Below are positions 2,847 through 20,426 of a stretch of DNA of 24,323 nucleotides, piece by piece. Source of the DNA: a virus (lineage: Duplodnaviria > Heunggongvirae > Uroviricota > Caudoviricetes); IMG/VR virus record IMGVR_UViG_2651869755_000001; one strand, 5' to 3'. Position numbers and translations under genes: made by a program. Positions within the stretch are counted from its first letter, which is position 1. The number at the start of each line of letters is the position of its first letter. The notes beneath the pieces are model-generated. The model was given only the letters and a program-made list of their open reading frames with translations, was not told the origin of the DNA and did not search any database.

Positions 2847-3199
2847 TACGCCTCCGATGTAACAGTCGTTATTCCATAAAGAGTGTCGATTTCAGCGGAA
2901 AACATGACACGTCGGGTCGTGGTATCCACCGTCGTATTGAAAGAGAGGATTGATTTAACGCCCTGCGTTTCGAGGATGCGCTTACGGATCGCCAGGTTGT
3001 AGGTTTCCGGCTTCTGCTTACCGAGTACGGACTGGATCCACGGAGTCCCCTCGGTGGTGTCGAGAAACCATTGCCCATACCACAATTCGAATCGAGTTTT
3101 TACCGCCTGCGCCACGGCCTCCGGTGAGTTAATCAGCCAAGTGTCATCACCGCTGCCAAAGGTGTAATCGCCATCGGCGTCTTCACGTCTGTATCGCAT
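2846..3199 (-). CDS. small baseplate protein, gp25/W-like (117 aa)
   Basis: ORF track. Lies between the spike and J genes. ATGA overlap with the spike gene at 3199. Confidence 0.45.
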   Translation of the reverse strand: MRYRREDADGDYTFGSGDDTWLINSPEAVAQAVKTRFELWYGQWFLDTTEGTPWIQSVLGKQKPETYNLAIRKRILETQGVKSILSFNTTVDTTTRRVMFSAEIDTLYGITTVTSEA

Positions 3200-3951
3200 C
3201 AGTTTACTCCGTCGGTATTGCTTCCACCGCGCTGAACACCACCATGAGTGTGCGTATCATCGATTGGCTTGCCGTTAGCCTTCACGCTACCCAAAAACTC
3301 AACAGCACCAGTGATTTTTGAAGCCACACCAGAAACAACAGACCCCACCATGCCTCCCATCCAGGTTAACAGGCCATGAATGGTTACTTTCTCAGAAAAA
3401 TCAGCCAGAGGGGCAACCACATCAAGGCCCCCCGGAGCGACAATTTTAATTTTCCTGGTATCAGGATTAAGCTCAAAATAGGTGCTGCCGTCATCACTAC
3501 GCAACTGTGTGGCACTGGTATTAATACCGCTAATCTTCCTTGCCTGCGACTGGGGACCGACAATACAAAACGCATCCGATAAATCATGCATTCTGTCATC
3601 GACCGGCTCCTGTATCCCGCCACTCTGCCACCAGAAATCAATACAACGATCGGCAAAAATCACCAAACATTCATCACCGGCTTTAACTGGAAACGTTAGC
3701 GTACAGCCTCCGCCACGCGGGAATACCACTGGCACATCCACCAGCAATGGGTAATTTTTGGTAATGCGGTTGCCGTCGTTATCAATTTCAACGTAACGGA
3801 TAGCAGGCTGTACAACCGCCGTCACCGCATCAGGAGCGAATGACTGAACAATGCCAGGCAAGGCGACACGGATCTGGTTCTTTGTTGTTTCCCGTTCAGA
3901 TTTAAATGTTTCGGCAAGGTCGCCGCTGCGGGTCTGGTCAGATACTGCCAT
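3199..3951 (-). CDS. baseplate spike/assembly protein V-like (250 aa)
   Basis: ORF track. ATG at 3951-3949 preceded by GGAG. Gly-rich C-terminus and position as in Mu gp45 / P2 gpV-type spikes. Confidence 0.5.
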   Translation of the reverse strand: MAVSDQTRSGDLAETFKSERETTKNQIRVALPGIVQSFAPDAVTAVVQPAIRYVEIDNDGNRITKNYPLLVDVPVVFPRGGGCTLTFPVKAGDECLVIFADRCIDFWWQSGGIQEPVDDRMHDLSDAFCIVGPQSQARKISGINTSATQLRSDDGSTYFELNPDTRKIKIVAPGGLDVVAPLADFSEKVTIHGLLTWMGGMVGSVVSGVASKITGAVEFLGSVKANGKPIDDTHTHGGVQRGGSNTDGVN

Positions 3952-3970
3952 TTAGTAGGCTCCAGAAAGC

Positions 3971-3995
3971 AAAAAACCCGCCAAGTGGCGGGTTT
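3971..3995 (-). terminator. rho-independent terminator on the minus strand, closing the two-gene accessory operon
   Basis: Plus strand reads aaaaaa-cccgcc-aagt-ggcggg-ttt. On the minus strand this is a 6-bp GC stem (9 bp counting flanking A:T pairs) with a 4-nt loop followed by TTTTTT, beginning 21 nt after the stop of the 142-aa gene. Confidence 0.7.
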
Positions 3996-4015
3996 GAATT
4001 TTGAGAAATTTCAGC

Positions 4016-4444
4016 TTATGCAGTTAACGAGTCATCACCAATCTTCAGTAATTGATTAACGATTGCATCGACCTCTTCCGCATCCAGAATTACACTTCTC
4101 GCGGTAATCCGGTTGATTTTCCGCTCAAGCTTGTAATCAGAATTAACACGTTGGGCATGCGTCATTTTCAGTTTAACGCCGATTTTCTTTACTGCGTTAA
4201 CATCAACATCGTTAAGTGCAGCTGCCTCACCACTACAAAAGGCCGTATAGACTCGCATGTGAACTCCACCTTTTAGTTTTTCACCATCTTGTGTAGCGGT
4301 CGGTACCAGATTGTTGGTGATCCGTAAGGCGGAATGGTACATACCATAGTATGCTCGGCTAATAGCATTTCTCGTCCACATCTCACCGTTTAGAGCCAGG
4401 GAATGCTTAGCCAATTCAAGAAAACAGGTATGCTCAACCGACAT
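4016..4444 (-). CDS. hypothetical protein (142 aa), distal gene of accessory operon
   Basis: ORF track. ATG 4444-4442 shares one nt with the TAA stop of the upstream gene (TAATG), suggesting translational coupling. About 40% GC by hand count against about 55% in flanking tail genes. Has an R-x6-H spacing at residues 30-37. Confidence 0.6.
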   Translation of the reverse strand: MSVEHTCFLELAKHSLALNGEMWTRNAISRAYYGMYHSALRITNNLVPTATQDGEKLKGGVHMRVYTAFCSGEAAALNDVDVNAVKKIGVKLKMTHAQRVNSDYKLERKINRITARSVILDAEEVDAIVNQLLKIGDDSLTA

Positions 4445-5175
4445 TAGAGTTCCCCGGCTTCAAAGCATCCGACGCATTCTGAATCCGCAAGCCCCGCAAT
4501 AATAATCTCATCAGCCAAGGCATTATTCATCTGCGAAAGAAGCACTGGATCGTCTGTTTTGACTTCAACGAACAGCGTATCAAGTTCTGACATTACATAA
4601 AAAGCATGAGCGCCAGCAAGACGAGCGCGGTACTTTTCTGCAACGTTCATCATGAGCCGCCCAATAGTTTTTAGCTCCTGAGCATGATCTTTTTGGGTAT
4701 GCAGATAATTGAGCGTGTCATACCATTTGCCCATATCTTCAGGGCGCGGCACTTCCATTGCAGTTAGCATCGGCATCACCTTTTCAAGCAAATCGATATC
4801 AACCCAGTATGCAGAAATTGTAGCAACCTCAGCCAATATCGTTGGATTAAGTGAATCAGATGCTTTCTGAATCATCACATACTGGCGAGCATGCAAACCT
4901 AAGTTACGCAGCGCAATCGTATAGTTACAAAAAGAAACTGGATCGTTAGGCGCTATTCTCAACCCCCGCTCACAGAGTGAACATCCTTCATCTATTTCAC
5001 CAAGAACAAGCTTAGCTAAGCCTTCAATTGATAGCCCCTGATAACGTTCAGGTAGTTTCTTCGCTTCACGAATGATTCGATGGATTTCAAACTCACTCAG
5101 AAGGTTTTCACCCTTAGTTAATGAAGGAGTCAGAAGATCTAACAGTTCTCCTGATTTTGGCTGCGCTAAGCTCAT
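4444..5175 (-). CDS. hypothetical protein (243 aa), proximal gene of accessory operon
   Basis: ORF track. ATG at 5175-5173 with AGGAAT upstream. Low GC. Two CxxC pairs (CSLC near residue 64, CVGC near residue 235). Preceded by a 149-bp non-coding spacer. Confidence 0.6.
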   Translation of the reverse strand: MSLAQPKSGELLDLLTPSLTKGENLLSEFEIHRIIREAKKLPERYQGLSIEGLAKLVLGEIDEGCSLCERGLRIAPNDPVSFCNYTIALRNLGLHARQYVMIQKASDSLNPTILAEVATISAYWVDIDLLEKVMPMLTAMEVPRPEDMGKWYDTLNYLHTQKDHAQELKTIGRLMMNVAEKYRARLAGAHAFYVMSELDTLFVEVKTDDPVLLSQMNNALADEIIIAGLADSECVGCFEAGEL

Positions 5176-5324
5176 GTTTTAGTTATTCCTGGCTTTAATG
5201 AAGTAGCATATCGATGGCAATCCACCATCAAAAAGTCAGTGCAGTGTAATCGCTCGTCTCAAAAAACAACAGTTTTTAGAGCACATTTTGTTGTTTTTCA
5301 GGCGTTACGAATTTCAGGTTACCT

Positions 5325-5666
5325 TCACCCAGCCACTTTTTTACAAGGGAAAGATCCGATGATTTTCGGCGCATCCATGCTGTTCTGCAGAAGCTGGACA
5401 TTCAGGAATCGCGTTTCGGTACCAGGGCGACGAATGTATTCAAAGCCGTAGTTGTTACCGTCTTTGGCAGGCATAAGCCCCATGTCTACTTTCAAACCAT
5501 TGGTACCCAGTTCGGTGATTTTTTGAGAGGTAACTCTTTCACCGTTGATAGTCGATAACTCGCCCTGGTTTGCAACCATAGTGTAGCCACCGCATTTAAC
5601 CGTGAAGCCATCCGCCCACGCGCTGCACGCAGAAAAGACAGCTAACAGAAAAATAATACCCCTCAT
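5325..5666 (-). CDS. predicted lipoprotein or secreted protein (113 aa)
   Basis: N-terminus MRGIIFLLAVFSACSAWADG: positive residue, hydrophobic core, lipobox-like FSAC (Cys14), and an AWA signal peptidase I motif. ATG at 5666-5664 lies 3 nt after the hub gene TGA, with AAGGGGA upstream. Confidence 0.6.
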   Translation of the reverse strand: MRGIIFLLAVFSACSAWADGFTVKCGGYTMVANQGELSTINGERVTSQKITELGTNGLKVDMGLMPAKDGNNYGFEYIRRPGTETRFLNVQLLQNSMDAPKIIGSFPCKKVAG

Positions 5667-5669
5667 TGC

Positions 5670-6731
5670 TCATCCCCTTTGCAAAGCCGATCGCGTATAC
5701 AGATCCGCCGCGCCACGCGCTTCGCACATCATATCCATGTACCACGCCTGGCCCCTTGTGTCGCCAGTGTACATAATCCCGCGCACAATATAAACGCCAT
5801 CCGTTGCGATGCTGGCAGGCTGCGATGTGGTGCCGCTTAGCGTGATATTTCCATCCGTGTTCTGGTCGGTGATCTGACCACCAGCCATCGCAATATCGTT
5901 GTTCGACAAGGCGGTACGATACACGGAAGCCTGATCCAGCTGAATAAGTCCGTTAACCCGGATGTTCGGATTAATAAGCGCGCGGACGTTTACGCCGTTA
6001 CCGATAGTCTGCTGCGGCATGCCAATAAGCCCGGTAGCGCTGTTGAGCACAATCGCTTCATGAACATATTCGTTATTCGCCACCATCTGGCGCTGACCGT
6101 CCACGAATTGCCATGTTGTGCCACATTGCCCGGCTACGTTATCCATTAGATGCCGCGTCATGCCAAAGAGTACCCGCCCCCGGGGGAATACAGTAGCAGG
6201 CATTTCCGGCGTCAGGCCTTCGGTCGCGCCTTTGGCTTCGAAGTCTTTCATCAGCGCACGGTTTACATCAGCGACCGTGTAACCGGCAGCCAGCGTCTGT
6301 GAGGTTATACTGGTGGCAAAAGCCAGATCAGTATCTGCTGCCTGAATCAGGACGTAGGAATCAACCGGACTGTCTTTTCCTGTGACCGAGTAGCGAATTT
6401 CACCGCTGAAAATCAGTCCGTAGTTGCGGCCATCACTCTGACCCACGTCCGCCGCGTCAACTTCCCGCACGGTCCCGACGTCGCTTGCCGACACCTCCGG
6501 CGCGATACCGTCGTAACCGGCAATCATACGCACTTTCGAAAACTCCTGCCCGGTGATTCGGTTCACAGTATCTGCCGAGAGGTTATAAATTTTGATAGTC
6601 CCTACCCGGGACGCGCTGCTGATGTTGAACCAGTCGATCGTAAAGGTGACTTTAAAATCACTTAGCTCAATTCCCTGACCGTTCCCGTCCACAAGCTGCA
6701 GCTCGAAATGTCTCATCCAGTTCTGTGACAT
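5670..6731 (-). CDS. putative baseplate hub protein (353 aa)
   Basis: ORF track. ATG start. Position between the post-tape-measure genes and the spike, as for Mu gp44 / P2 gpD-type hubs. Assignment is by synteny. Confidence 0.45.
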   Translation of the reverse strand: MSQNWMRHFELQLVDGNGQGIELSDFKVTFTIDWFNISSASRVGTIKIYNLSADTVNRITGQEFSKVRMIAGYDGIAPEVSASDVGTVREVDAADVGQSDGRNYGLIFSGEIRYSVTGKDSPVDSYVLIQAADTDLAFATSITSQTLAAGYTVADVNRALMKDFEAKGATEGLTPEMPATVFPRGRVLFGMTRHLMDNVAGQCGTTWQFVDGQRQMVANNEYVHEAIVLNSATGLIGMPQQTIGNGVNVRALINPNIRVNGLIQLDQASVYRTALSNNDIAMAGGQITDQNTDGNITLSGTTSQPASIATDGVYIVRGIMYTGDTRGQAWYMDMMCEARGAADLYTRSALQRG

Positions 6732-7623: not shown

Positions 7624-9608
7624 TAACCCACCCTCACCTGATTACTTCGCATGACCTGAGCATTTGCAGACTGTTGCCGACGTGCAACCTCATTACCGAC
7701 AGCGTGCGGATCTCCGCCACCGTAAATATGGTAGGTATTTTGCTGGTTAACCTCTGTCACTTTGCCACTAATTCCCGCCACGGCAGCCTTATTAATCAGC
7801 TCTCGAGAATAGATATTTCTTCCATTCTCATGCTGGATAATGCTGCTCATCAATGCTGACATGGTTTGCGGATCGCTCATATTCAGGGCAGCCCGGGGAT
7901 CCACTCCCAGTCGTTGCGATACAGCCCTGATATACGCGGTTGTGTTGTTATTATCAGACGCAGGTGCCCAGGTAGAGATAATTTTCTCCACACTGTTTAT
8001 TCCCCGTCCGGCGTACAGCATTAACTGACGAGCAAGAGCCCGTAATCCATCAAAAGCGGTTTCAAATCTGGCAAATCGCCCGCCCGGTCGTTCAAGAGAA
8101 GCCCCCGCCTGACCAGCAAAATTAAGGTTTCCCGGATTGTTATTCCGTTCTCCTCGCTTCGTAGCCTGTGCATGTTGTTCCGGCTCAGCACCTGGAATAT
8201 CTGACTGAATATTTGCGCCTTTTACGGTATGAGGATTACGACCAAAATCGGTATCAATGCCAAGCCAGCGCAATGAATCTCCAATATTTTGTTTCGTGTA
8301 ATCCCAGGATGACTTCGCACTGGCACCAATATTTTCGCGATCGGAGTACAAATAAGCAGCATAAGCCATCCAGCCTTTTAACCATGGCGGTACCGGCAAA
8401 CCAGATATTTTCCCGAAAGCCCCCAGAACCCTGGATACCCAGACACCCGCGATGAATGTACCGAGGATTTCCAGTGCATTTTGCCAGCCGCCAACACCAT
8501 CTTTTAGTTCCAGAAGGTGATCACGAAGCCAGGTGATCGCATCCTTCGCTTTATCTATTGCCGGTTGCCATTTTTCCCAGTCGATAAGACTGTTACCGCC
8601 TTCTTTCCATGTTTTGTAGTCTTCCCACAAGAGACCGAGAGCCACGATCAGACCGGTAATCAGCCCTATAGGTGACATCCAGAAAGTAGAGTTAAGTATC
8701 CGCATGGCGACAACCAGACCGCCGATAACCTCTATCAGGGTTTTCGTTTCGGCATCCAGTTTCCCCCACCACTCGATGATATCTCCGACACCATCGACTA
8801 TCCGAAATGCTACCCGCCCGACTATCTCACCCAGCCAGAGGATCCCCTTTATGACCTTTGTGATGGTGACTTCAATTTTGGGAAAATTTTCAATTATCTT
8901 TTTGCGCAGGTTATCAATCTGCCCCGCCAGTCCGTCCGCAAGATTCGATCCGATTTTGTCCCGCGCCATCCCGGCCATTTCACCGAGCGATTTCAGCGAG
9001 GTCATAAACCGGTTTGACGATAAGGCAGCCTGATCGGCATTAAATCCGATCGCTTTCACCATTTCTGAATACTGAGCGCTGAACTGCCCCACTCCGCGAC
9101 GCATAGCCATCAGGGTATTTTCGTCAATGCCCAGCATCTGCGCATACTGGTTAGCCCGGTAATACGGCATGCTGCTGAGTTTCTGTCCAACGCCCGTAAA
9201 GATAGCAGCCATGTCACGCATGTTACCGCGGGCATCACGGGTCTGTACGCCCAGGCGATTCAGAAAGCCTTCTGCTCCGGGATTGTTACGAATAAACCGG
9301 GAGAGGCTTTCCAGAGAAGATCGCGCAGCGTCCACACTGCCGCCAACCTGCGAAACCGCATAGCCAATAGACTGAATTCCCTGGACCGTCGCGCCGGTGC
9401 GCTGTGACGCCCAGTAAAGATTATCCAGGCCGGAGGCGATCTTAGCCGTGAAGGCCACCACGGACAGCGCAGCTCCTTCAACAGCCAGCCCCATTTTGAT
9501 GACATTTGCAGTTGTACCGGCGAGGACAGAACCGAACTTTTTCGCTCCTGCATCATCCACACTGAAGCCAAGCGAGACGAGGAAATCTTTAATAGTTTCA
9601 GCGTTCAT
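7623..9608 (-). CDS. tail tape measure protein
   Basis: Longest tail ORF, between chaperone and baseplate genes, with a hydrophobic central segment. The track start at 9629 is TTG; the ATG at 9608-9606 preceded by GGAGAGAGG is the more likely start (about 661 aa). Confidence 0.75.
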   Translation of the reverse strand: MNAETIKDFLVSLGFSVDDAGAKKFGSVLAGTTANVIKMGLAVEGAALSVVAFTAKIASGLDNLYWASQRTGATVQGIQSIGYAVSQVGGSVDAARSSLESLSRFIRNNPGAEGFLNRLGVQTRDARGNMRDMAAIFTGVGQKLSSMPYYRANQYAQMLGIDENTLMAMRRGVGQFSAQYSEMVKAIGFNADQAALSSNRFMTSLKSLGEMAGMARDKIGSNLADGLAGQIDNLRKKIIENFPKIEVTITKVIKGILWLGEIVGRVAFRIVDGVGDIIEWWGKLDAETKTLIEVIGGLVVAMRILNSTFWMSPIGLITGLIVALGLLWEDYKTWKEGGNSLIDWEKWQPAIDKAKDAITWLRDHLLELKDGVGGWQNALEILGTFIAGVWVSRVLGAFGKISGLPVPPWLKGWMAYAAYLYSDRENIGASAKSSWDYTKQNIGDSLRWLGIDTDFGRNPHTVKGANIQSDIPGAEPEQHAQATKRGERNNNPGNLNFAGQAGASLERPGGRFARFETAFDGLRALARQLMLYAGRGINSVEKIISTWAPASDNNNTTAYIRAVSQRLGVDPRAALNMSDPQTMSALMSSIIQHENGRNIYSRELINKAAVAGISGKVTEVNQQNTYHIYGGGDPHAVGNEVARRQQSANAQVMRSNQVRVG

Positions 9609-18732: not shown

Positions 18733-20354
18733 CAGGCCTGTCTCCCTAGCAGCTCCCAGATGTTCAGGGCTGAATTCATTGGGGCATAGTTGATCATCAC
18801 CGAGTCGGCAAGGTTTGGCGATCGGGTTCCATCAGGCTGTTTATCAATAACGATTTTTCCCACACCATTAATGGAATAGGTCGGCTGCGAAAGCTCGATG
18901 ATGAGTTTATCTTTGAGTGCCATGCTACTGCTGATTGAGATGATTTCGTCCGGGTTGTAAGCCATACCTTCAACCACGGCGCGCCAGGTATTCTGAAAAA
19001 GTTTACGTAACCGCCACCAGCTCTGGGCTTTGGCGTTAGCGAAGAAGTCCTTGTTCAGACGTGCGGCTTGCCCGTTGTCCCCGCGAACAGCTTCATCATC
19101 CGGATCAAATACCGCGCCACTACCTCGAAACGGTGTGGCAAGTATTGACGGTCGACGCGCAGCGTTACGCAGTTCGTTGATAGCGCGTGCATCGCCGCGA
19201 ACGCCAGCGCCCAGCCCGTCCTCGTCAAAGCGAAACTCATCAAGATTGTCCTGTTCGCAAAAGCCGAAGACCTTCTCGACGGACTGATAAATGTCGCTGC
19301 CCACCCCGGACCATTCCCGCACATTCTCCAGGAGGAAGCCATGACGGGTGGAAAAGGCATTTTTGTCCCTGCCTTCGTCGGCGACATCCATCGCGCCAAG
19401 TCGTTTGCCTGTTGGCTGGATACCCAGTTTGATATGCGCATCAACGGCAGCCTGTACCCATTCGGATGGAATCAGGACGCCTTCCGCTGATGCGCTGTAG
19501 TTCAGATCAAGTTCCTGTGCCACCACCACCGGATTATCGATTTTCTCGCATTCCCTGCGATACCACTCTTCATCCTTGCGAGGATCATCCCGCCAGTGGA
19601 ATGTGAATACCGGTATCTTCCCGCCATGACGCTTCTGAGCGAACGGGTTAGCCATGCCGTTAACTGAACTCAGGTCAATACGGCAACGCGTCGTTTGTGA
19701 CAACGCCGCATCAATCAGCAGAGGACGCTGAAGGAATGCAGCCTCATCAACCAGATAAAGCGTGGTACGGTCACCACGACCAATATTATCGCCAGCCTCG
19801 CCTTTGATAACGGCACCAGTTTCAGGAAACTCAACACGCATATATGGCGCGTGCTTCTTCTCGCTCCACGAACCGCGAAACTCTACAGGTAGTGTTTCCA
19901 CGAACTTGCGCGCCTTCCAGAACAATGCTTTCGGGTCACCGGTGCTGTCGACGTATTCCTCTTTACGGGAGCCGAAACCGATAACCATTTCTTTGTTGAA
20001 GAGACAAAGCGAGCAGGCCAGTCCGATCGCGGTCCAACTGAGCCCCATTTCACGGGATTTTTCGGTAATACCATTCTCCCGATTGCCCCAGCGTTCCATA
20101 ATCCAGTGGATCCACTCCTCCTGTTTAGGGAAGAGTAAAAACGGAATGGTCACCGGCAGGCCATAATCAATATTACGCGGGTCTGTTGTCATGCCCCAGT
20201 CGATGATGAACTGAGCCGGGTTGGTACGGTAAAACTGCTTCAATACGGGCAATATTTCAGGATTCTGGCGAATGCGCTGTAGGCGTTCCATCCGCCATTC
20301 AAAAACCATCTGGTAATCAGGATGTTTAAAATCGAAGGGAAATGGTAACGGCAT
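18732..20354 (-). CDS. terminase large subunit (540 aa)
   Basis: ORF track. ATG at 20354-20352. Walker B-like LYLVDEAAF. Size and position between terS and portal. Confidence 0.8.
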
Positions 20355-20369
20355 ACCTAGCCCTAACTG

Positions 20370-20398
20370 TTGAAGTTATTATAAACTGGAAGCATATT
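20370..20398 (+). promoter_or_regulatory. candidate sigma70 promoter for the plus-strand small gene
   Basis: TTGAAG (20370-20375), 17-nt spacer, CATATT (20393-20398), about 28 nt upstream of the ATG. Weak matches, read by eye. Confidence 0.3.
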
Positions 20399-20426
20399 AC
20401 TTATGTTTATTTGAAAAGGAGATTTT

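Follow-up and report, generated by a model that had tools for sequence, protein, structure and literature searches.

The 24,323-nucleotide stretch analyzed here (IMG/VR record IMGVR_UViG_2651869755_000001, hereafter the window) is an Enterobacterial prophage, and comparison with related prophages identifies positions 3996-5324 as a mobile two-gene prophage cargo cassette lying between the genes of the baseplate hub and the baseplate spike. The cassette encodes a 142-amino acid (aa) protein with a HEPN domain and a 243-aa TPR-like partner, and this pair most likely acts as a toxin or anti-phage defense pair rather than as a component of the tail. We hold, with slightly better than even confidence, that it is a toxin-antitoxin (TA)-like or abortive-infection module, in which the predicted HEPN effector would be combined with the TPR partner as its inhibitor or sensor. 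The elements on which this reading is built are as follows.

5176-5324, minus strand: upstream spacer, 149 bp, 37.6% GC, cassette-specific

4444-5175, minus strand: gene for the 243-aa partner, with a TPR-like repeat and a C-terminal beta-beta-alpha-beta domain

4016-4444, minus strand: gene for the 142-aa HEPN-domain protein, AF0298/UPF0332 subgroup, predicted effector

3966-3995, minus strand: intrinsic terminator, stem-loop at 3974-3995 (9-bp stem, 6 G-C pairs) followed by a T-run

Both open reading frames (ORFs) are real genes, as more than 1000 contigs carry conserved homologues and the pLDDT of the AlphaFold models is 91 (142-aa protein) and 90 (243-aa protein); the exact proteins of the window are each present on at least 1000 contigs. 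Their stop and start codons overlap in the sequence TAATG with one base (A) common to both, as described in an earlier note made from the window sequence alone, and the 149-bp spacer listed there is also present. The GC content of 3965-5175 is 44.2% (38-41% at third codon positions), compared with 50.7% for the window as a whole, 50.1% for the spike gene and 54.4% for the hub gene, and is among the lowest 1.3% of all 1211-bp windows. The low GC content reported in the earlier note is therefore real, but its size was overestimated, because the flanks are at 50-54% and the contrast is not the claimed 38-45% versus 55-58%. The GC content of the cassette was also below that of its flanks in 10 of 10 other contexts compared.

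E. coli O55:H7 DEC5E and strain CAU16175 match region 3960-5330 with 100% identity. In the DEC5E copy of the prophage (L004), the DUF2612 wedge gene has an internal stop and pinE is frameshifted, while the cassette is intact; judged from these lesions, that copy is probably defective.

The exchange of the cassette was examined by comparing related prophages at the same junction, as the earlier note had suggested. The hub-to-spike query matched 353 of 5426 complete E. coli genomes, and the cassette was present in 32 of these 353. Prophages with approximately 90-99% identical flanks hold different cargo, and at least nine other cargos were found in the same slot. Pairwise alignments gave sharp breakpoints at approximately 3995, where homology to prophages with other cargo resumes, and at 5325-5338, where it ends. 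From these two breakpoints the swapped unit is deduced to be 3996-5324, consisting of the private spacer and both genes; the position of the second indicates that the spacer 5176-5324 travels with the genes. In addition, the identity of the cassette is decoupled from that of the backbone (L042, L021-L023, L068-L072): at one locus a 100% identical cassette lies beside a 71% identical spike, at several loci cassette alleles of 51% and 31% identity lie beside a 97% identical hub, and a cassette of 71% and 68% identity was found in a backbone with a 48% identical hub. The accessory, moron-like insert in the late operon proposed in the earlier note is thus supported by its presence or absence between near-identical flanks, by its higher AT content in every context, and by its occurrence in unrelated slots described below. 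In the searchable literature we found no description of SEN34/E217-like myovirus prophages having a hotspot in their hub-to-spike slot. The other cargos of the slot were the following.

L026: DUF2335 protein

L027: DUF4282 protein

L028: 241-aa 'HMG-box' protein

L029, 1098-2088: 190-aa protein with a YafO-family toxin (RefSeq-annotated)

L030, 1115-1843: 56-aa and 184-aa proteins, the 184-aa one being present in ETEC (enterotoxigenic E. coli) H10407

170-aa protein

Divergent allele of the window pair, 243 and 140 aa, approximately 50% and 31% identity

YP3 (Yersinia), a more distant phage: 266-aa protein

SEN34, a more distant phage: pair of 77 and 138 aa

A search of these alternative cargos with PADLOC gave a single weak match, of the 184-aa protein of ETEC H10407 to a PycTM-like/2TM effector (E = 2.6e-4), and their assignment to known defense genes was accordingly rejected.

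The left boundary of the slot coincides with the terminator. The terminator 3966-3995 directly precedes the ribosome-binding site of the spike gene (AACCCGCC-N4-GGCGGGTTTTTTGCTTTCTGGAGCCTACTAAATG; 3952-3995 in the window), and the hairpin and this site were kept in 9 of 10 aligned slot versions, whatever the cargo. The ten versions comprised that of the window and nine other cargos, eight of which keep the hairpin (L001, L003, L026-L031), the version without it being that of YP3. The strong hairpin noted earlier is therefore present, but the idea that it is the cassette's own terminator was rejected, since the same hairpin accompanies eight of the nine other cargos and the breakpoint lies at approximately 3995. 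The alignment thus places the terminator as the conserved left boundary of the slot, shared among cargos, and the terminator together with the spike ribosome-binding site is probably the recombination anchor for cassette exchange. A near-identical hairpin was also found 3′ of the pair in other slots. The possibility that the spacer or the region of the terminator holds a known RNA element was considered and rejected: Rfam matches at the terminator to leaders and small RNAs were all below threshold and driven by the hairpin alone, and the spacer 5176-5324 matched no Rfam family at the gathering threshold and did not fold with unusual stability (z = -1.2).

The right boundary is the stop codon of a 113-aa ORF, which intervenes between the cassette and the hub gene, so that the pair does not lie directly beside the hub as had been supposed. 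The relatives of this ORF are named 'STY1065/STY2022 family' in RefSeq and are located 3′ of the hub gene in nearly all related prophages, with the exception of the 'HMG-box' variant (L028), where it is missing; by this comparison the ORF is a conserved backbone gene outside the cassette. The late genes are all on the minus strand, in the order Q antiterminator, lysis, head, tail and tail fibers, and the tail module belongs to the SEN34/E217 type. The backbone genes relevant to the cassette are listed below.

23449-23871, minus strand: Q-family antiterminator (Pfam Phage_antitermQ, E = 5e-42), at the head of the late operon

5670-6731, minus strand: baseplate hub gene (PHROG 196 baseplate hub, E = 1e-87; Pfam E217_GP41 below cut-off)

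5325-5666, minus strand: 113-aa ORF with a signal-peptide or lipobox-like N-terminus (MRGIIFLLAVFSAC...), PHROG 3443, function unknown

3199-3951, minus strand: baseplate spike gene (Pfam spike N-terminal domain, E = 3.6e-43, and GpV apex motif)

The pair is not confined to this slot. Among 76 loci with a homologue of the HEPN protein, the following contexts were observed.

Hub-to-spike slot: 47 of the 76 loci, in E. coli, Salmonella, Citrobacter and Ewingella, among others

3′ of the tape-measure gene and ahead of the tail-tip genes: lambda-like Lelliottia prophage

Between the tail assembly chaperone and tape-measure genes: Klebsiella variicola

nin region: lambdoid Klebsiella prophages, the Klebsiella variant accounting for 806 index blocks

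Beside a DUF551 gene: Serratia

Integrase-att end: P2-like prophages

Between portal gene Q and replication gene A (gpA-gpQ locus): Vibrio P2-like phage

Two of these sites are known for defense genes, as the gpA-gpQ locus of P2 is the old/tin defense hotspot (PMC9122126; PMC13586616) and the integrase-att end of P2-like prophages is a minor one (PMC13586616). The nin region of the lambdoid Klebsiella prophages is counted with them as a neighborhood of the defense type. Pairs of the Salmonella variant were found in 1139 blocks of the assembly collection index. Isolated phage genomes with the pair numbered only three, a scan of GTDB genomes with a single peptide pattern gave 3 loci, and a search of plasmids gave no instance of the pair. 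This distribution bears on whether the two proteins are structural proteins or assembly factors of the tail or baseplate that are particular to this phage lineage, as might be supposed from the position between hub and spike genes on the strand of the late operon and from the predominance of the hub-to-spike slot among the loci. We consider this explanation very improbable and rejected it on distribution and fold: about 90% of the E. coli prophages matching the region lack the pair, the pair is also present in nin regions, integrase-att ends, the gpA-gpQ locus and siphovirus tail modules of unrelated phages, and the folds are those of HEPN and TPR proteins, not of virion proteins.

We examined the same 76 loci for an upstream partner of the HEPN protein. 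A partner homologue was located directly upstream on the same strand in 70 of them and was recovered on inspection in 3 more, the remainder being one locus cut by the contig end and two too remote to call; for the most remote partners (L084 and L085) homology was not significant (hhalign 17% and 45%). The pairing is kept at 25-30% identity, as seen in the 259-aa partner of Yersinia and Serratia P2-like prophages (hhalign 96.7%), in a 162-aa Providencia partner that consists of the C-terminal half only (hhalign 93%), and in the pair of the Vibrio P2-like phage (hhalign 92% and 98.5%). The two genes in other contexts overlap or are at most 4 nucleotides apart. The two proteins diverge in a correlated manner (r = 0.79), but not at equal rates: the partner is the faster, with identities of 26-69% compared with 44-71% for the HEPN protein. 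Antitoxins and sensors are usually the faster-evolving partner of such pairs.

The 243-aa partner has the helical-hairpin repeat fold of TPR proteins, with ten helices in a TPR-like repeat followed by the beta-beta-alpha-beta domain at residues 186-240. When 1.84 billion representative proteins were searched exhaustively with HMMER, approximately 45 full-length clusters of 236-276 aa were obtained, and the remaining matches were long generic TPR proteins matching only residues ~40-110. The conserved parts of the family are the N-terminal helix (KSxEL...SLxxGxxLSEFE) and the C-terminal domain (LNxEL...C.G.F), and residues 141-200 are the most variable. The two CxxC pairs pointed out in the earlier note are present, but a Zn site is unlikely and was rejected, because C234 alone is invariant, C65, C68 and C237 being kept in 12, 17 and 12 of 25 sequences, respectively. 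Neither Pfam nor the fold search gave a nucleotidyltransferase signal or an antitoxin-type DNA-binding domain in this protein, and an MNT-like partner was rejected on the first of these results. We predict that the 243-aa protein is an inhibitor or sensor of the HEPN protein.

These properties would also suit a plain addiction TA module, in which a HEPN toxin and a labile TPR-like antitoxin stabilize the prophage or the cassette with no role against phages. Many TA modules turn out to be defense systems, and for this reason addiction overlaps with the reading that we favor. The bicistronic arrangement with the larger gene first, the overlapping stop and start codons and the faster evolution of the upstream partner are all compatible with it, as are the YafO-family toxin pair in the same slot of other prophages and the assignment of HEPN-T proteins as toxins of HEPN-MNT systems (PMC3710099). 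Nevertheless, the partner lacks the DNA-binding or nucleotidyltransferase domain typical of antitoxins, and every occurrence of the pair is in a prophage cargo slot, one of these being a validated defense hotspot, and none is on a plasmid. We therefore regard addiction alone as rather unlikely.

The model and the profile results place the 142-aa protein in the AF0298/UPF0332 subgroup of the HEPN domain. Its modeled fold is a four-helix up-down bundle of the HEPN type. The window protein itself gave no Pfam match at E ≤ 1 and matched the PDB profile 2hsb with E = 0.18; the profile of its family reached relatives at approximately 25-38% identity, four of which pass the Pfam HEPN cut-off (PF05168), and alignment of the family with these relatives by hhalign gave 99.8%. 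Several relatives are named UPF0332 by JGI. The HEPN character guessed in the earlier note is thus supported by fold and profiles, but the R-x6-H spacing on which the guess was based is not the motif, because R30-x6-H37, although invariant, is in helix 2, and the motif position is R99-x3-D-Y. At this canonical Rx4-6H position, the end of the third core helix, the sequence reads R99-V-N-S-D103-Y104, with Asp in place of His. AF0298-like HEPN-T proteins are described as lacking the motif His, often with Asp instead (Anantharaman et al. 2013, PMC3710099), and as carrying another, alternative His that is conserved in the insert separating helix 2 from helix 3 (PMC3710099). In accordance with that, G59-G60-x-H62-x-R64 was invariant in 24 of 24 sequences and matches the His of this insert. 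Salmonella Typhi has an 80-aa truncated homologue of the HEPN protein (P0316), which is possibly a pseudogene.

Thirteen polar residues are invariant in the close family (E21, R25, R30, H37, R41, H62, R64, H96, R99, D103, Y104, K109 and N111). In the relatives at approximately 25-38% identity, R25, R30, H62, R99, D103 and Y104 remain invariant, and E21 and H37 are at least 90% conserved. Sequence and model together put residues 25, 29, 33, 37 and 41 in one stripe along helix 2, a spatial arrangement that the model suggests. This conservation is relevant to another explanation, that the two proteins form a non-catalytic HEPN/TPR complex serving the phage as a ligand- or RNA-binding regulator, a counter-defense factor (nucleotide-signal sponge) or a modulator of lysogeny or host physiology. 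So many invariant charged and polar residues, many of them kept in the distant relatives, fit an active site better than such a role, and they are arranged like the alternative catalytic site that has been proposed for AF0298-like proteins (PMC3710099). In addition, counter-defense genes usually belong to early regions, and a late or cargo slot with a private spacer upstream would be unusual for them. A non-catalytic complex accordingly seems to us improbable, to much the same degree as addiction.

The mechanism that we propose for a TA-like or abortive-infection module starts from the established gene structure, folds, conserved candidate site, strict pairing, cassette mobility, slot boundaries and presence of Q. 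In a lysogen, the pair would be transcribed from a putative promoter in its own AT-rich spacer, and the transcript would end at the slot terminator. The partner would bind the HEPN protein and keep it inactive in the manner of an antitoxin. When a competing phage infects, a phage product might engage the partner, or the partner might be lost, and the freed HEPN protein, probably as a dimer, would cleave cellular RNA. Cleavage would use a non-canonical site composed of R99 and the alternative His62, with E21, R25, R30, H37 and H96 nearby, and the predicted outcome is that translation halts, growth is arrested and the infection is aborted. During lytic growth of the prophage itself, Q-modified RNA polymerase would pass the terminator and reach the spike gene. 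In lambda, Q antitermination lets late-operon transcription pass terminators, and by this analogy a terminator inside the late operon would be tolerable because the operon is under Q antitermination.

The promoter of this scheme was examined in the spacer 5176-5324. A sigma-70 consensus scan called no minus-strand promoter there, and a relaxed scan gave a single, weak promoter-like site (-35 TTGATG at 5231-5226, -10 TATGCT at 5210-5205, N15). Better promoter-like sites of the form TTGAAG-N17-TAnnCT were found in three other contexts of the pair. As a separate observation, an element GATTCAACCAAAGGTTGAAGG...TTTAAGGTAATA is located 5′ of the pair in Klebsiella L007 (~7890-7940) and L018 (~5170-5220) and in the Ewingella hub-to-spike locus L015 (~7870-7915). 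It contains the inverted repeat TTCAACC/GGTTGAA overlapping the TTGAAG-N17-TAnnCT site, and the inverted repeat may be an operator; the spacer of the window lacks the element.

Several results weigh against a toxin or abortive-infection module. Since the promoter of the window is weak or undetected, read-through of the late operon could by itself account for expression. The 142-aa protein lacks the histidine of the canonical Rx4-6H motif, and catalysis is for this reason not assured; moreover, to our knowledge no RNase activity has been demonstrated for AF0298-type HEPN proteins. Neither protein, including those of the remote pairs, gave a significant match to a PADLOC-DB v2 model, and the other cargos of the slot are mostly unrecognizable as defense genes, the exceptions being one YafO-family toxin and one protein with a weak PycTM-like match. 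Much of the probability left beside the favored module lies with the two functional alternatives, addiction and a non-catalytic complex, which overlap with it.

A more specific proposal, which we put forward only tentatively and consider doubtful, is that the pair represents a new two-component prophage immune family, in which a TPR-like receptor gates a non-canonical HEPN RNase (R99 and His62) and the hub-to-spike junction of SEN34/E217-like myovirus prophages is a defense-exchange hotspot anchored on the conserved terminator. As part of this proposal, the variable surface of the receptor (residues ~141-200) would recognize proteins of competing phages. If it is true, the AF0298/UPF0332 HEPN branch would thereby gain its first assigned function in bacteria. 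For a defense or toxin system in general, the pair would affect which phages, therapeutic ones included, grow on many clinical Enterobacterales, would assign a biological role to the AF0298-type HEPN branch, which is known in structure but functionally orphan, together with a non-canonical active site that can be tested, and would add a TPR-type partner to the modes of HEPN toxin control. The pair is a sound, if unsurprising, candidate for experiments, with a function predicted from sequence. The hub-to-spike slot, bounded by the conserved terminator and by the 113-aa gene with its stop codon, is in addition a convenient place to mine prophage cargo.

Elsewhere in the window, a 113-aa ORF at 23076-23417 (minus strand) with no Pfam match is flanked by the genes for the Q antiterminator and the holin, where GC is approximately 44%, and could be another accessory gene. 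GC dips were observed at 20200-20800 and 22600-23200; besides the 44% region, one dip (approximately 41%) is near the presumed small-terminase region, which was placed solely by offset from the DEC5E annotation.

We then compared the pair with known systems. Relative to the AF0298-like HEPN-T proteins (UPF0332/PF05168; 2hsb), the window protein has no Pfam HEPN match and is linked through profiles; it is bacterial and prophage-borne, and its partner is TPR-like and not a nucleotidyltransferase. In HEPN-MNT systems (HepT/MntA; 5yep, 6m6u, 7ae2, 8xdj) the toxin is a HEPN-T protein (PMC3710099), and the window pair resembles these systems in being bicistronic with the partner first and coupled translation. 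It differs in having no adjacent MNT or nucleotidyltransferase fold and in missing the canonical RX4H histidine, and AMPylation-type neutralization cannot apply to it because the partner lacks the nucleotidyltransferase fold.

Prophage HEPN defenses have precedents in HepS of Gifsy-1 (PMC13043305) and Tha of S. aureus prophages (PMC11087260), and the window pair, like these, has its HEPN effector in a prophage accessory slot. However, HepS is a solo protein with the canonical R100-H105 motif (PMC13043305), whereas the window HEPN protein has a dedicated 243-aa partner, and Tha is paired with a small antisense-encoded inhibitor (PMC11087260), whereas the partner here is an obligatory TPR-like protein of 243 aa. 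Neither HepS nor Tha was among the top structural matches of the 142-aa protein. Operon links of HEPN genes to TPR and Sel1 repeats are known from AbiU2, next to a Sel1-repeat gene, and from LA2681, fused or next to TPR (PMC3710099), and the window pair similarly combines a HEPN gene with an alpha-helical repeat protein in an operon. Unlike the window protein, the AbiU2 and LA2681 families keep Rx4-6H, and they are unrelated to it in sequence; no homology was detected between their partners and the 243-aa family.

Among the PADLOC models, the best matches of the 142-aa family were to HEPN_IX at E = 5e-4 to 1e-2 only, and the best of the 243-aa partner was E = 0.013 (PbeB, one member), followed by PDC-M71B at best 0.023. 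The coincidence of PDC-M71 A and B matches was limited to 1 of 24 and 3 of 25 members with E > 0.01 and was taken as noise. Identity with the systems of DefensePredictor was also rejected, as neither accessions nor sequence fragments were found in the available parts of the DefensePredictor supplements; its HEPN pair DS-28 has a canonical RNxxxH protein and is unrelated to the window pair. Both proteins are of unknown function in PHROGs and hypothetical in every database checked, and the literature search found no description of the family of the pair.

The site itself resembles the lambda moron model and the P2 gpA-gpQ and P4 hotspots in its variable insert, deviant GC content, own spacer and terminator, with the difference that the terminator is a shared slot boundary and not part of the cassette. 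No described system matches the window pair, which is an uncharacterized variant of the HEPN-based toxin and defense modules found in phage hotspots.

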